Shown piece by piece: positions 3,167 through 48,356 of a stretch of 64,000 nucleotides of DNA. This DNA comes from Firmicutes bacterium UBA2598 (GTDB lineage: Bacteria; Bacillota; PH28-bin88), in the NCBI GenBank assembly GCA_002339345.1, contig DDKM01000069.1:21973-85972 (forward strand). The letters run 5' to 3'. A program made the translations under genes and the position numbers. A model generated the notes under the pieces. That model did not search any database. It was not told the DNA's origin and was given only the letters and a program-made list of their open reading frames with translations. Each line of letters starts with the position of its first letter. The stretch's first letter is position 1.

Positions 3167-4063
3167 TTAGCGCAGGAAGTCAATCAGGCTGGGTTGGATG
3201 ATCCTCGCCCCTGTGGCCAGGGCTGCCTGGTAAGCATATTCCTGGTTCTTAAATAGCATCACAGCCTTGGGAAGGTCCACGTCCTCCATTTTGGACAGGA
3301 TGTCCACTGCCAGCACCTCCGCCTGGGATACCCGGTCCAGGGCCAGGCGCAGGCGGTTACTCTTGGCACCCAGGGTGGCCCGGTGATTCAGGATATGGTC
3401 ACCGTACTGGTCGAGTTTTTGCAGCAGATCGCCGGACAACTGGGCGGTGTTGCCGCTCTCCAGAGCCGCCTTCAGCTCAAACAATACCTGGAATACTGCA
3501 CTCTGGCCGCCTGCCACGGCAAATACCGAGGCCCCATCGGCATTGACAGCCACGGTAACTCCGGGGGCCACCTCCCAATTCATGGCCTGTTCATTGCCAC
3601 GGTACTCCACCATATCTCCCACCCGCTTGAAGGGAGGTTCGGTGGTATGGCTGCCACCGAACACATACCTGCCACCGAAGGCGGTATTGCCCACTTGGAC
3701 CAGTTCGTCAATGAGCTGGTTCACTTCCATGGCCAGGGCATTGCGGGAATCTTGGGGGATGGTACCGGATCCGCCGTACACCGCCAGTTCCCTGGCCCGC
3801 TGCAGAACGGTGGTAGCACCGCTCAAGGCATCCTCGGAGGTGTCGATCCAGCCGATGCCGTCCTCCATGTTCCGTACATGCTGGGCCTGTTCGGCTAATA
3901 CCGATTTGAAGGAAAGGATCTGGGCCATGCCGATGGGATCGTCAGAAGGACGGCGCACCAGCCGGCCGGAGGACATCTGATCCTGCATTTTGTTCATCCG
4001 CTGTAGGTTCCGGTTCAGGTTGGTCAAAATGGTATCACTGAGCATGCGGTTGGTAACTCTCAC
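3167..4063 (-). CDS. flgL: Flagellar hook-associated protein 3 (FlgL)
   Basis: 298 aa with a GTG start and GGGAGGG RBS. The N-terminus MRVTNRMLSDTILTNLNRNLQRMNKMQDQMSSG and the flagellin-like N/C termini are typical of FlgL. It lies immediately downstream of flgK. Confidence 0.9.
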   Translation of the reverse strand: MRVTNRMLSDTILTNLNRNLQRMNKMQDQMSSGRLVRRPSDDPIGMAQILSFKSVLAEQAQHVRNMEDGIGWIDTSEDALSGATTVLQRARELAVYGGSGTIPQDSRNALAMEVNQLIDELVQVGNTAFGGRYVFGGSHTTEPPFKRVGDMVEYRGNEQAMNWEVAPGVTVAVNADGASVFAVAGGQSAVFQVLFELKAALESGNTAQLSGDLLQKLDQYGDHILNHRATLGAKSNRLRLALDRVSQAEVLAVDILSKMEDVDLPKAVMLFKNQEYAYQAALATGARIIQPSLIDFLR

Positions 4064-13783: not shown

Positions 13784-13892
13784 CCTCCAGCGGCAACCCG
13801 GCGATCTTGGCCCTGCCGATGTCCGGCAAAAGCTGTAGACCCGTAGCTTTGCGTCCCTCCCTTTCGGAAGGTTTGCCCAAAGGCGCTTAGGT
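13784..13892 (-). promoter_or_regulatory. c-di-GMP-I (GEMM-I) riboswitch aptamer
   Basis: The minus strand reads AAGCGCCUUUGGGCAAACCUUCCGAAAGGGAGGGACGCAAAGCUACGGGUCUACAGCUUUUGCCGGACAUCGGCAGGGCCAAGAUCGCCGGGUUGCCGCUGG. It contains GGCAAACC, a GAAA-tetraloop hairpin, GACGCAAAGC and a 3' GGGUUnCCG, in the same order as the Vc2-type aptamer as I recall it. Confidence 0.85.
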
Positions 13893-22337: not shown

Positions 22338-23510
22338 ATGCTTCCAGATGAACAAGGCCGGTATGGGCCATACGGCGGCCGTTTCGTACCGGAGACGGTA
22401 ATTCCCGCCCTTGTGGAACTTGAACAGGCCTATAACGAGGCTGCCGCAGACCCAACCTTCCAAAGGGAAGTGGACTATTACCTGCAAAAGTATGTCGGCC
22501 GGGCCACCCCCCTGTATTTCGCTGAGAGACTGTCCGAATCCGCGGGAGGTGCCCGCATCTTTCTTAAGCGGGAAGACCTGAATCACACCGGTGCCCATAA
22601 AATCAATAACACCATCGGCCAGGTGCTGCTGGCCCGCCGGATGGGTAAAAAGAGGGTCATTGCTGAAACCGGGGCCGGCCAGCACGGGGTAGCCACCGCC
22701 ACCGCCGCCGCCCTTTTCGGCCTGGCATGCACCGTCTTTATGGGCGAAACGGATATCAGGCGCCAAAGCCTGAACGTCTACCGCATGGGCCTGCTGGGAG
22801 CGGAAGTGGTCCCGGTGACCAGCGGCACCCGCACCCTGAAGGATGCCACCAGTGCAGCATTACGGGAATGGGTGACCAGGGTCCGGGACACCTATTACGT
22901 CATCGGCTCCGTTGTAGGCCCACACCCTTACCCACGCATGGTCAGGGATTTTCAAGCGGTAATCGGCAGGGAGGTTCGCCAGCAAATGATGGAAATGTAC
23001 GGCCGCCTGCCGGACACGGTGGTGGCCTGTGTGGGCGGCGGCAGCAACGCCATGGGTATCTTCCATCCACTGCTGGCAGACCCGGTCAATCTGGTGGGTG
23101 TGGAAGCGGGAGGCCACGGGTTGGCCACCGGGAATCATGCTTCCACCCTCCAGTGCGGACAGCCCGGCGTGCTGCACGGATCCCTCTCTTACCTGCTGCA
23201 GGACAGTGACGGCCAGGTGCTGGAGGCCCACTCCATTTCCGCCGGCCTGGATTATCCAGGGGTAGGACCGGAACACAGCTACCTGAGGGATACCGGGCGG
23301 GTGCGATATACCGCCATTACCGATGCCGAGGCACTGGCGGCCTTTCACCAGTTGGCCCGCACCGAAGGCATTCTCCCCGCTCTGGAAAGCGCCCACGCGG
23401 TAGCCCAGGCCCTGAAGATGGCACCGGAACTTAACCAAGACCACCTCCTGGTGGTGTGCCTGTCCGGCCGGGGCGATAAGGATGTGGAGGTGGTGCAGTC
23501 ATGCGGGTAA
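22338..23510 (+). CDS. trpB: Tryptophan synthase beta chain
   Basis: 390 aa with an AGGAGGA RBS. Contains the PLP-lysine motif HTGAHKINN and GGGSNAMG. Confidence 0.96.
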
Positions 23511-24304
23511 AGCAGGTAATGGAAAGGCTAAGGAAAGATGGGCGTAAGGCTCTGATACCCTATCTGATGGCGGGAGACCCCTCCCCGGATTTCACCCACC
23601 GAGCGGTACTGGAACTGGCGGGTCTAGGCGCCGATATGGTGGAGCTGGGCATCCCCTTTTCCGACCCCATGGCGGACGGTCCGGAAATCCAGGCCGCCGC
23701 CCAGCGTGCCCTGTACGGAGGTACTACCGTGGCCACAGTTTTGGAACTGGTCAGGTCCATCCGGCAGGAAAGCGCCATTCCCCTGATCTTGATGGGCTAC
23801 TATAACCCTATCTTCCGCTACGGGCTGAAGGAGTTTGCCGGCACCGCAGCAGAAGCAGGGGTGGATGGGGTAATCGTGCCGGATCTGCCCTTGGAGGAAA
23901 GCTCTCCCCTGTTTGACCAGCTGACAAAGGTGGGCATTGACTTTATCCCCCTGGTTGCCCCCACCACCTCACCGGACCGGATGGCCCAAATAGGGCAAAG
24001 GGCGCCCGGCTTGATCTACTGCGTTTCCCGCACCGGTGTCACCGGTACCGGCGGGGAAACCGATGACAACCTTCCCGCTTACCTCAACACCGTGCGGCAG
24101 CAAACAAAACGCCCGACGGTGGTTGGTTTTGGCATCGATGGCCCCGCCAGGGCGGTAGCGGCTGCCCGCCATGCCGACGGTGTGGTGGTGGGCAGCGCCC
24201 TGGTGCGGTTTTTTGCTGGTGGAACCGGCAACCCTCTGGGCCAGGCAGGTGAACTGATCCAGACCATCCGGTCCGCCCTGGATGGAATGACCAGTACGGA
24301 ATAA
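23501..24304 (+). CDS. trpA: Tryptophan synthase alpha chain
   Basis: 267 aa overlapping the trpB end. [24 protein letters not shown] and GFGI are typical TrpA motifs. Confidence 0.95.
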
Positions 24305-24417
24305 CGATTCCCGGCGGGGGTAAGCCCAACCATACCGATTGTGGCAGGAAGCCGTGCGAAAGGACTCCTTGACGAAATATGGGCCAAGGAAACTACCGGG
24401 ATTGCTCGGTTAAGGGA

Positions 24418-24704
24418 ATCGGGATAGGGGACAGCAAGTAGCCGCCGACCCTCCCACACCACCAGCAAGGGGGTCATACCCATGCGGTTCGTCAAGATTA
24501 ACGGACCACTAATCCATTCATCAAGGGAACCGGCAAGTATCTTCATATAGGCCAGGCGGAAGTAGTTCAGCCAGCCGATGATTACTTTATTCTACAGTAG
24601 GTCCCCGCACCTCACGGTGGACACCCTTGCCCTTGGCTAATGGTTCCCACTGCCAAGTCCATAGCGGGCTTTCACCGCCAAACTATCGCCCATGCCGGGC
24701 GCAC
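24418..24704 (-). mobile_element. Decayed, internally deleted group II intron (class C-like) relic
   Basis: The minus strand starts GTGCGCCCGGCATGGGCG...GGTGAAAGCCC...TTAGCCAAGGGCAAGGGTGTCC, a GUGYG 5' end with IIC-like domain I. It contains a maturase (domain X) remnant, KVIIGWLNYFRLAYMKILAGSLDEWI. This is followed by a D5-like GAACCGC...GGTGGTGTG and a D6-like helix with a bulged A 7 nt before the terminal GAT. At 287 nt it is far too short to be functional. Confidence 0.75.
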
Positions 24705-24711
24705 CGATAAT

Positions 24712-24747
24712 GGGAGGTACCCAACCGGGGTACCTCCCATTTGTTTG
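24712..24747. terminator. Strong hairpin: terminator for the plus-strand (trp) transcript and stem-loop flanking the 5' end of the IIC intron on the minus strand
   Basis: An 11-bp perfect stem GGGAGGTACCC/GGGTACCTCCC with a 5-nt loop, followed on the plus strand by ATTTGTTTG. It lies 10 nt beyond the stop of the minus-strand gene 24748..25374 and 7 nt before the intron's GTGCG on the minus strand. Confidence 0.7.
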
Positions 24748-25374
24748 CTAGTCGAGCAACTGCGGCGGGAAGGGCGGCCAGGTGGGGACGAAATCCGGGC
24801 ACTCGCCGGCCACTTCGCACTCTTCCGGTTCGGGACAAAAACCGTAGGCGGGAATTAACAACTGCACCTCCGCAAACAGTTTAAAGAGAATTAGTTTGCC
24901 GATACAGCACCGGACGGTGGTGGAGTCGATGAGGAAGCACTCCAGGCACTCCAGGAACACATCGCACTCCGGCTCCAGGCCCGCTTCACCGGCCCTGGCC
25001 AGGCGAACGGTAAACTCCTCCATGATGGGGTCACTGGTGAAGGTGTGGGTACCTGTGTCATCGGTCCAGCGGAAGGTGTAGCGCCAGAAAAATACCACCC
25101 GAACCCGGCGGCCGGCCAAGATTGTGCAGGTGGGGCCGGGGAAATAGGGCGGTGCATCCACTACCTCGGCGGATACGCATTCCACATCGGTAATGGTCCC
25201 GGTCGCCAGACCGGACAGGTCGGTTACCGGCTGGTTGACCTCGGTCAGCTTGCACTCCTCGTATACCTTTTTGGTTTTAATGCAGACGATCTCCGTTGGC
25301 GGAGGACACCCGTATACGGGATCACAAGGACCGGGTCCCACCTCCTGACGCATGTTCGATTTCTTTTTGTCCAC
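24748..25374 (-). CDS. Hypothetical Cys-rich protein (14 Cys; possible spore-coat-type structural protein)
   Basis: 208 aa with a GTG start and AAGGAGGG RBS. There is no signal peptide. It has many Cys residues in EC/CxxC-like contexts and I recognise no family. Confidence 0.7.
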   Translation of the reverse strand: MDKKKSNMRQEVGPGPCDPVYGCPPPTEIVCIKTKKVYEECKLTEVNQPVTDLSGLATGTITDVECVSAEVVDAPPYFPGPTCTILAGRRVRVVFFWRYTFRWTDDTGTHTFTSDPIMEEFTVRLARAGEAGLEPECDVFLECLECFLIDSTTVRCCIGKLILFKLFAEVQLLIPAYGFCPEPEECEVAGECPDFVPTWPPFPPQLLD

Positions 25375-47171: not shown

Positions 47172-48356
47172 TTACAGCACCCGCAGAACAGCGCACTTTA
47201 AATAGTAGGACTCATCATAACCCATCAGTGTGGGATGATCCTTGGCCTGTCTTCGCATTTCCAACAATTGAATCCTTCGTCGCACATCCTTTGCCGCCTG
47301 CTGGAGCATGTTCAGAAACAGGTCTTCAGTGAGGTGATAAGAACAGGAGTTGGTAACCAAAAGACCGCCCGGTGGCAGTAACCGCATAGCCCGCAGGTTG
47401 ATCTCCTTATAACCCCGCAAGGCCCCTTCCACCGCCCCCCGGCTTTTAGTAAAGGCCGGGGGATCAAGGATAATCAGATCATACCGTTCTCCCGCCTGGT
47501 CCTTGGCCCGCAACACATCAAAGGCGTTACCATGCCGGAACAGGCACCTGTCCTCCCAACCGTTAATTCGGGCATTTTGCGCCGCCAGGGTTACCGCATC
47601 GGCAGAGATGTCCAGACCCTCAACCTCACGGGCACCATAGTGGGCAGCATGCAGTGCAAAGGAACCGGTATGGCAAAACATATCCAGCACCCTGGCCCCC
47701 CGGGCCAGTCCTCGCAGTGCGGCCCTGTTTTCCCGCTGGTCCAGGAAATAGCCTGTCTTTTGGCCGTTGACAATGTCCACATTGATCCGGATGCCATTTT
47801 CTTTGATTTCCACCACCTGGGGGCAATGGCCCCATATGGTTCCCTTAATCAAAGGCAGGCCCTCAAGCTCACGTACCGCCATATCGTTACGCTCATAAAT
47901 ACCTAAAGGTTTCACTAGTTCAGCCAGTTCCTGCACAATGACATCCTTCCACTGGTCCATCCCCAAGGTAAGGGTCTGGATGACTAGGTATCCGGCAAAA
48001 TCGTCTACGATGAGGCCAGGCAGCAAATCAGCCTCACCAAAAACAAGACGCCACGAGTCACTGTCACCCTGTTCCATGAGCCTTTGCCGGAAGGAATAGG
48101 CGGCTTGCAGGCGGCGTCGTATCAACTCGGACCCTACGTCCTCTTCTTGCTGGGTCATCAACCGCACGATGATCATGGAAGCGGGATTGATGTACCCCTT
48201 CCCCAGGAATCGACCGCGGAAATCCGCCACCTCCACAATTCCGCCGGCGGTAACCGGCCCCTTGATTTCTGCCACCTCCGTCCGGTAGATCCATGGGTGG
48301 CCATTTTCAATTCTTTTCTGCCGGCCGGGTTGCAATTTGACCACAGTTTTGCTCAT
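47172..48356 (-). CDS. rlmI: Class I SAM-dependent 23S rRNA m5C methyltransferase (RlmI-like, PUA + MTase)
   Basis: I prefer the ATG at 48356 (GGGGAG RBS), giving MSKTVVKLQPGRQKRIENGHPWIY. Contains VLDMFCHTGSFALHAA (SAM motif I) and ILDPPAF (motif IV). Confidence 0.88.
   Translation of the reverse strand: MSKTVVKLQPGRQKRIENGHPWIYRTEVAEIKGPVTAGGIVEVADFRGRFLGKGYINPASMIIVRLMTQQEEDVGSELIRRRLQAAYSFRQRLMEQGDSDSWRLVFGEADLLPGLIVDDFAGYLVIQTLTLGMDQWKDVIVQELAELVKPLGIYERNDMAVRELEGLPLIKGTIWGHCPQVVEIKENGIRINVDIVNGQKTGYFLDQRENRAALRGLARGARVLDMFCHTGSFALHAAHYGAREVEGLDISADAVTLAAQNARINGWEDRCLFRHGNAFDVLRAKDQAGERYDLIILDPPAFTKSRGAVEGALRGYKEINLRAMRLLPPGGLLVTNSCSYHLTEDLFLNMLQQAAKDVRRRIQLLEMRRQAKDHPTLMGYDESYYLKCAVLRVL

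Follow-up and report, generated by a model that had tools for sequence, protein, structure and literature searches.

Genes and features at the locus

The window analysed here is a 64,000-nt stretch of the source genome, a 2.44-Mb assembly of 110 contigs that is 84% complete (labelled G000; C-numbers denote contigs). The trp operon on its plus strand, whose upstream genes and trpA were recognized by Pfam (IGPS, PRAI, PALP and Trp_syntA), converges on a minus-strand gene for a Cys-rich protein. The 440-bp gap after trpA is accounted for by a 287-nt segment on the minus strand, which starts with GTGCG at 24704 and reads GTGCGCCCGGCATGGG..., and lies next to a GC-rich hairpin. The features at the locus are as follows.

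23501–24304, plus strand: trpA, last gene of trpC-trpF-trpB-trpA (Pfam Trp_syntA, 8.5e-83)
24418–24704, minus strand: the 287-nt segment
24709–24741: GC-rich palindromic hairpin of 14 pairs with a 5-nt loop (terminator scan; fold of −29.9 kcal/mol)
24748–25374, minus strand: gene for an uncharacterised protein of 208 aa with 14 Cys (translation; no Pfam match)

The hairpin consists of an 11-bp GC core (24712–24738) that can be extended to 14 pairs (24709–24741). Read on the plus strand, it precedes TGTTTGCT, and no other terminator-like site was found in 24100–25000. On the minus strand it comes after the stop (24748) of the Cys-rich protein gene and lacks a T-tract; hairpin and segment are both downstream of this gene and in the same orientation. 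Because the hairpin is the sole terminator-like site after trpA, the trp mRNA would carry a 3′ UTR of about 440 nt, lengthened by the 287 nt of the segment read in antisense, as the initial annotation of the region had proposed.

Descent from a class C group II intron

The first ~105 nt and the last ~100 nt of the segment recur at about 20 places in the source genome, with identities of 86–92% for long matches and 84–97% for short partial ones and E-values down to 1e-37. At their outer limits the matches break off no more than one base from 24704 and 24418. With both ends repeated in the genome and bounded this sharply, the segment is more than a product of chance. Its 5′ piece, Segment A, is 86–91% identical over the full ~106–111 nt to the 5′ ends of copies in C20, C90, C99 and C55, has shorter partial matches (84–97%) in C84, C17, C10 and C35, and was found in 16 of 41 related genomes.

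What follows Segment A elsewhere identifies the family. In C99, C55 and the related loci L048, L051, L053 and L055, the shared 5′ piece runs directly into a match to the Rfam model group-II-D1D4-3 (RF02001). The 1.48-kb copy in C99 scores 84 bits and the copy in C55, which runs off the contig end, 45 bits (gathering score 32), and scores in full-length introns of the relatives are 107–154 bits. C99 also matches D1D4-1 (RF01998; 45 bits, gathering score 35), and both C99 and C55 carry a frame resembling RT domain 0; RT frames also follow in the four relatives. The GTGCG at 24704 fits the GUGYG 5′ end noted in the initial annotation, and its homology to the 5′ ends of bona fide introns bears out the intron origin proposed there.

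The class is indicated by the intron-encoded proteins (IEPs). Two full-length relatives that share the 5′ piece, L051 and L055, have intact IEPs of 473 and 502 aa. Against PDB sequences, the L051 IEP matched 7uim at 3.5e-124 and the GsI-IIC RT at 2.9e-114, compared to 2e-45 for LtrA. The IEP of L048, a locus in a genome of the same taxonomic family whose 5′ piece is 90% identical to that of the segment, matched the GsI-IIC RT at 7.8e-97. Overall, the relatives' IEPs match IIC RTs at 1e-97 to 1e-124 vs about 1e-33 to 1e-45 for IIA and IIB proteins, and judged by these comparisons the closest full-length relatives are of the class C type. Taken together, 24704 to 24418 on the minus strand is very probably what internal deletions have left of a class C (IIC) group II intron, a ribozyme-based mobile retroelement, and every part of the 287 nt is explained by intron homology.

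Anatomy of the relic and its internal deletions

Read 5′ to 3′ on the minus strand, the relic and its upstream spacer are composed of the following parts.

24705–24711, minus strand: spacer ATTATCG, 7 nt, between hairpin and intron, at the position of the 5′-exon IBS1 in class C introns
24600–24704, minus strand: Segment A, ~105 nt from the start of intron domain I (D1), opening with GUGCG (repeats in the genome and in relatives)
24598–24603, minus strand: deletion junction 1, in the hexamer GACCTA, about 1.3–1.4 kb lost
24509–24599, minus strand: Segment B, thumb/X (maturase) remnant of the IEP, reading ..L(stop)NKVIIGWLNYFRLAYMKILAGSLDEWI, interrupted by an in-frame stop and lacking a start codon
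24509–24517, minus strand: deletion junction 2, within ATGGATTAG, ~240 nt of the C-terminal part of the IEP lost
24491–24508, minus strand: last codons of the IEP, TAA stop (24500–24498) and a short linker (alignment)
24456–24490, minus strand: degenerate domain V (D5; alignment and folds)
24418–24455, minus strand: domain VI (D6) with bulged A at 24425 and 3′ end ...CCCGAU (fold)

The initial annotation recognized a multiply deleted element of 287 nt, and two deletions were mapped against paralogues. D1 homology stops at about 24600, so the switch to protein-derived sequence occurs ~105 nt into the element and earlier than the ~140 nt first proposed. The loss at junction 1 comprises the remainder of D1, including the part that carries EBS1, together with D2, D3, D4a and RT domains 0–7. 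D1 copies in C90 and C55 read ...GCGG(GG/AT)ACCTAA... at this point, and the X-domain paralogue C35b reads ...AAAGACCTAAACCGC...; GACCTA, reconstructed from these diverged paralogues, would be the microhomology at the junction.

Segment B, which aligns to paralogues C35b and C45, matches the Pfam family GIIM over 24508–24591 with 27.3 bits (cut-off 23). Its translation contains the peptide KVIIGWLNYFRLAYMKILAGSLDEWI, preceded two codons upstream by a stop and without a start codon. About 30 residues of a class C RT/maturase thus survive. When the 31-aa remnant was compared to 177,635 PDB sequences, it gave only two matches, both to IIC RTs and both at the expected position within the thumb/X domain (7uim residues 322–348 and GsI-IIC residues 316–343). 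Lacking an RT domain and a start codon and broken by a stop in frame, the relic does not have the intact RT ORF of an autonomous retroelement, and the maturase/X-domain remnant is as the initial annotation described it.

At junction 2, ATGGATTAG is common to the DEWI codons and to the C-terminal codons of the IEP. Past this point, C35b and C45 run GATGAATGGATT(A/G)GGCG.AGACTG... (...DEWIRRRLRMCIW...), and the relic switches to TGGTCCGTTAA, the IEP end that is present in C62, C84 and C99. A fragment in C84 (C84a) keeps the IEP end intact at the equivalent place, ...SLSKGYLMVR followed by a stop.

The 3′ terminal domain is intact. Its helix (GGGAGGG/CCCCU-A-UCCC) leaves A24425 unpaired, 7 nt before the terminal GAU (24420–24418) and within the 7–8 nt from the 3′ end that characterize the D6 branch-site bulge; the initial annotation had read this helix and its end at 24418 in the same way. 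D6 of the relic folds like that of the full-length L051, which ends in CUCGAU and shares ...CGAU with it.

The complete domains I–III of a functional ribozyme are absent: RF02001 and RF01998, found in the sister copies, have no match in the relic. Since the exon-binding and scaffold parts of D1, all of D2 and D3 and the RT are gone and D5 cannot fold, the relic is unable to splice, to reverse-splice or to be copied.

A shared domain V variant

The stretch GAACCGC...GGTGGTGTG at 24490–24455 had been taken for a D5-like element. It is homologous to D5, and this part of the claim stands; the canonical hairpin cannot be formed. A canonical IIC D5 has the same flanks, GAACCGC and GGUGGUGUG, and the 3′ strand also aligns, while the 5′ strand is scrambled, reading CCGCAUGGGUAU where pairing with the 3′ strand needs CCGCCUAGCGCG. 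A canonical D5 was defined as about 34 nt with a 9–10-bp helix containing the catalytic triad, a 2-nt bulge, a 3–5-bp helix and a tetraloop. RNAfold produced this structure for L051, L055 and a short copy in C17, and did not for the relic, C62, C84a or C99; in the relic the succession of helix, bulge, helix and tetraloop is missing.

The variant D5 is present in at least five copies at different loci (C22, C62, C84, C99 and C20), with positions window 24456–24490, C62:3743–3768, C84:2184–2209 and C99:27976–28001. A search of 400 further genomes of the phylum, allowing up to 3 mismatches, retrieved no instance, so that among the 401 genomes sampled from the phylum it is seen in the source genome alone. 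A search of metagenome contigs was likewise negative. In an alternative 4-bp helix of the variant, one pair is G-C in C84a, A-U in C99 and G·U in the relic and C62. This may reflect compensation, and with so few copies it is anecdotal.

If the relic belonged to a sub-lineage that spread by retrohoming after its D5 had changed, an active IIC lineage with a non-canonical catalytic hairpin would have existed. We consider this very unlikely. The shared variant is more likely due to gene conversion between dead copies, and spread before the change in D5 may be another mundane explanation.

Probable insertion behind a terminator-like hairpin

Class C introns target DNA behind terminator stem-loops, according to the passage of PMC7306698 that cites Robart et al. 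2007. The relic fits this preference. It begins 7 nt after the 11-bp core of the hairpin (24712–24738), in the sense orientation, with ATTATCG as the spacer before GTGCG. All 11 family 5′ ends that we examined, seven in the source genome including the relic and four in relatives, lie 4–10 nt after a GC-rich hairpin, which agrees with the homing preference invoked in the initial annotation.

Orthologues of the Cys-rich protein, 46–80% identical, occur in Bacillota and Syntrophomonadaceae MAGs. In three other Bacillota MAGs, the gene is directly followed by a hairpin and then by a T-tract of 8–10 T. Nothing similar to the relic occurs at eight orthologous loci, of which the three inspected have a plain terminator at this place, and the relic is therefore not a regular component of the 3′ region of this gene. 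The relic likely occupies the place of the minus-strand terminator T-tract. The reconstructed empty site reads ...CCCATTATCG joined directly to TTCCCTTAACC..., and its T-tract is weak, which counts against insertion of an intron behind a terminator of this gene. In the eight orthologue genomes the Cys-rich protein gene is not beside trpA, there is no shared intergenic sequence and no empty site was found; the exact hairpin sequence was absent from the metagenome contigs searched. As no close relative displayed an empty site, the insertion is deduced rather than seen. Any effects of the relic on its host are likely to be only passive.

Detection by Rfam models

At gathering thresholds, Rfam models found no intron family in the whole window and only a c-di-GMP riboswitch elsewhere (c-di-GMP-I, 13789–13887, minus strand, 66.7 bits). 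With a limit of E≤10 on 24200–24850, there was again no intron family and only a chance match to the Six3os1 lncRNA. The initial annotation had named RF00029 and the D1–D4 models as a check on the intron. The outcome was negative: RF00029, RF02001 and RF01998 have no match in the relic even at E≤10.

Two factors contribute to this silence. It is partly real, since the relic has no ribozyme core and its D5 is defective. In part it also reflects the models themselves, since the first ~85 nt of D1 are covered by none of them and RF00029 is weak on this lineage. Among intact relatives, L051 has no RF00029 match at E≤1 and L055 scores only 31.5 bits, below the gathering score of 40. Across the source genome RF00029 matches just two unrelated sites, in C8 and C21, and thus does not detect the D5–D6 of the relic's lineage. 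The C8 site (48073–48149, minus strand, 50.6 bits), at a contig end, is the only match above the cut-off in the genome and represents another family of group II introns. Screens based on Rfam consequently miss such relics despite unambiguous homology within the genome.

Probable history of the relic

Together, these features suggest the following course of events. A IIC intron would have retrohomed, on the minus strand and in sense orientation, immediately downstream of the stem-loop at the end of the Cys-rich protein gene; on the opposite strand, this stem-loop would terminate the convergent trp operon. About 1.6 kb would then have been lost in two internal deletions with junctions at the short repeats GACCTA and ATGGATTAG. 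Domain I would thereby have been cut to 105 nt and the maturase coding sequence to about 90 nt, with domain V scrambled and domain VI left intact. The remnant, now 7–16% different from its nearest paralogues, presumably drifted neutrally and would persist because the site is selectively neutral.

Other copies in the genome have decayed in a comparable way. At least five further mini copies of 112–191 nt keep both termini and lie beside a hairpin.

C17:90–209: 120 nt, 42 nt of D1 fused to canonical D5–D6
C90:310–470: 161 nt
C62:~3646–3815: about 170 nt
C20:31115–~30935: about 180 nt
C35:1–112 (C35a): at least 112 nt

The internal junctions differ in every mini copy, with no two alike. As the junctions are all different, the series points to repeated independent decay and not to the spread of one mini element.

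The same series bears on when the internal sequence was lost. Template switching by the RT during retrohoming could have integrated a cDNA that was already gutted, in which case the relic was dead on arrival. This would account for six minis in one genome with exact ends beside a hairpin and differing internal junctions, and template switching also uses short microhomologies of the kind found at the junctions. However, internal deletions that spare the ends are also expected from selection against harm to the flanking genes, and the relic would require two separate skips. The C90 mini copy is, moreover, joined exactly across a 22-nt imperfect direct repeat of the intron, GGTGGTGCAGGAAGTCGGCGGC in D1 vs GGTGGTGTGGGAGGGTCGGCGGC at the D5/D6 boundary (C90:~420–445 and window 24463–24441), a join typical of DNA replication slippage. 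Integration of a gutted cDNA is rather unlikely, although template switching may account for some of the deletions, and we favour deletion after insertion.

Several short copies with both termini intact could also be read as a non-autonomous, MITE-like derivative that is still mobile with the help in trans of a full-length intron RNP. C62 has the same 2-bp deletion and D5 changes as the relic and nearly the same start of the 3′ segment, and a helper may exist: four contig ends fall inside intron copies, and full-length copies may therefore be missing because they were not assembled (collapsed). No intact master copy was found in the 84%-complete assembly by an RVT_1 profile and tblastn with three full-length IEPs, which retrieved only fragments; the one RVT_1 match in the whole assembly contains an internal stop. 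Mobility of group II introns generally requires the ribozyme in cis, yet the relic is missing nearly all of D1 as well as D2 and D3, and its D5 is unfoldable. The copies diverge by 7–16%, no junctions are common to any two of them and the architecture of the relic is unique in the genome. A derivative that is still mobile is highly improbable.

The 155-aa open frame 24079–24546 (minus strand) exists and the region is GC-rich and folds readily, but a function of its own, as a protein gene or as a regulatory RNA of another class, is scarcely credible, because the frame has no Pfam match and is a patchwork running from the maturase remnant through D5, D6 and spacer into antisense trpA (the chimera described in the initial annotation), the chance lncRNA match is the only Rfam hit at E≤10, the sequence is absent downstream of orthologous genes and intron homology covers the whole segment. 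The frame should not be annotated as a gene. Decay of an inserted class C intron by internal deletion is the reading that we retain.

Comparison to known systems

The nearest systems are the bacterial IIC introns of Oceanobacillus iheyensis, Bacillus halodurans (B.h.I1) and Eubacterium rectale (E.r., 7uim) and the Geobacillus GsI-IIC RT (6ar1). The relic shares with them the GUGCG 5′ end, the ...GAU 3′ end, a D6 with a bulged A and CGC in the D5 base. It also shares a maturase remnant that, like the IEPs of its close relatives, is nearest to IIC RTs, and sense insertion a few nt after a terminator stem-loop, as the relevant passage of PMC7306698 has it. Unlike these introns, it has shrunk from roughly 1.9 kb to 287 nt: D2, D3 and the RT are missing altogether, D1 is mostly lost, the IEP lacks its C-terminal half and D5 is unable to form.

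ORF-less group II introns, as in Thermosynechococcus and archaea, keep all six RNA domains and splice with an IEP that acts in trans. The relic resembles these in being short, in having both ends and in lacking a working IEP, and differs in that the ribozyme core is missing.

A survey of group II intron fragments in bacterial genomes was reportedly made by Dai and Zimmerly in 2002. Many bacterial genomes contain such fragments (PMC3522654; Leclercq and Cordaux 2012). Like the surveyed fragments, the relic is truncated, inactive, in a non-coding location and accompanied by kin copies in the same genome. In contrast to them, it keeps both termini, its loss is internal and in two steps, and its genome holds a series of double-ended minis. 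The relic is ordinary genome debris, a fresh example of a well-known kind that illustrates the decay of class C introns behind terminators. The series of double-ended minis and the shared odd D5 are minor curiosities for the dynamics of intron extinction.

Other members of the intron family and their surroundings

Several further observations were made at loci that carry members of the family. Two intron fragments are arranged in series at C84:1000–2520 (minus strand) of the source genome. The first is a 3′ piece with the C-terminus of the IEP and the variant D5–D6, and the second has 65 nt of D1 fused to the X domain of a different IEP type (PIITGWANYY), its D5 being interrupted. In C45 (locus L017), an intron maturase fragment is followed, some 500 nt further downstream, by tandem cobalamin riboswitch aptamers (2049–2240, 138 bits, and 2326–2511, 130 bits).

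In the relatives, the IEP frame of the IIC intron at L048 (G003:C23) is broken at 1580–2281 by a second, different group II intron (RF01999, 121 bits; RF02003, 66 bits; weak RF00029), a nested, twintron-like insertion. At L051 (G019:C10), a c-di-AMP riboswitch (2322–2446, 97 bits) begins about 100 nt past the 3′ end of the full-length IIC intron, which is thereby placed between an upstream terminator and a riboswitch leader. Another genome of the same phylum, G028, has at least 18 copies of the intron 5′ end, mostly located exactly at contig ends, as would be expected if a full-length IIC intron had recently multiplied there and fragmented the assembly.
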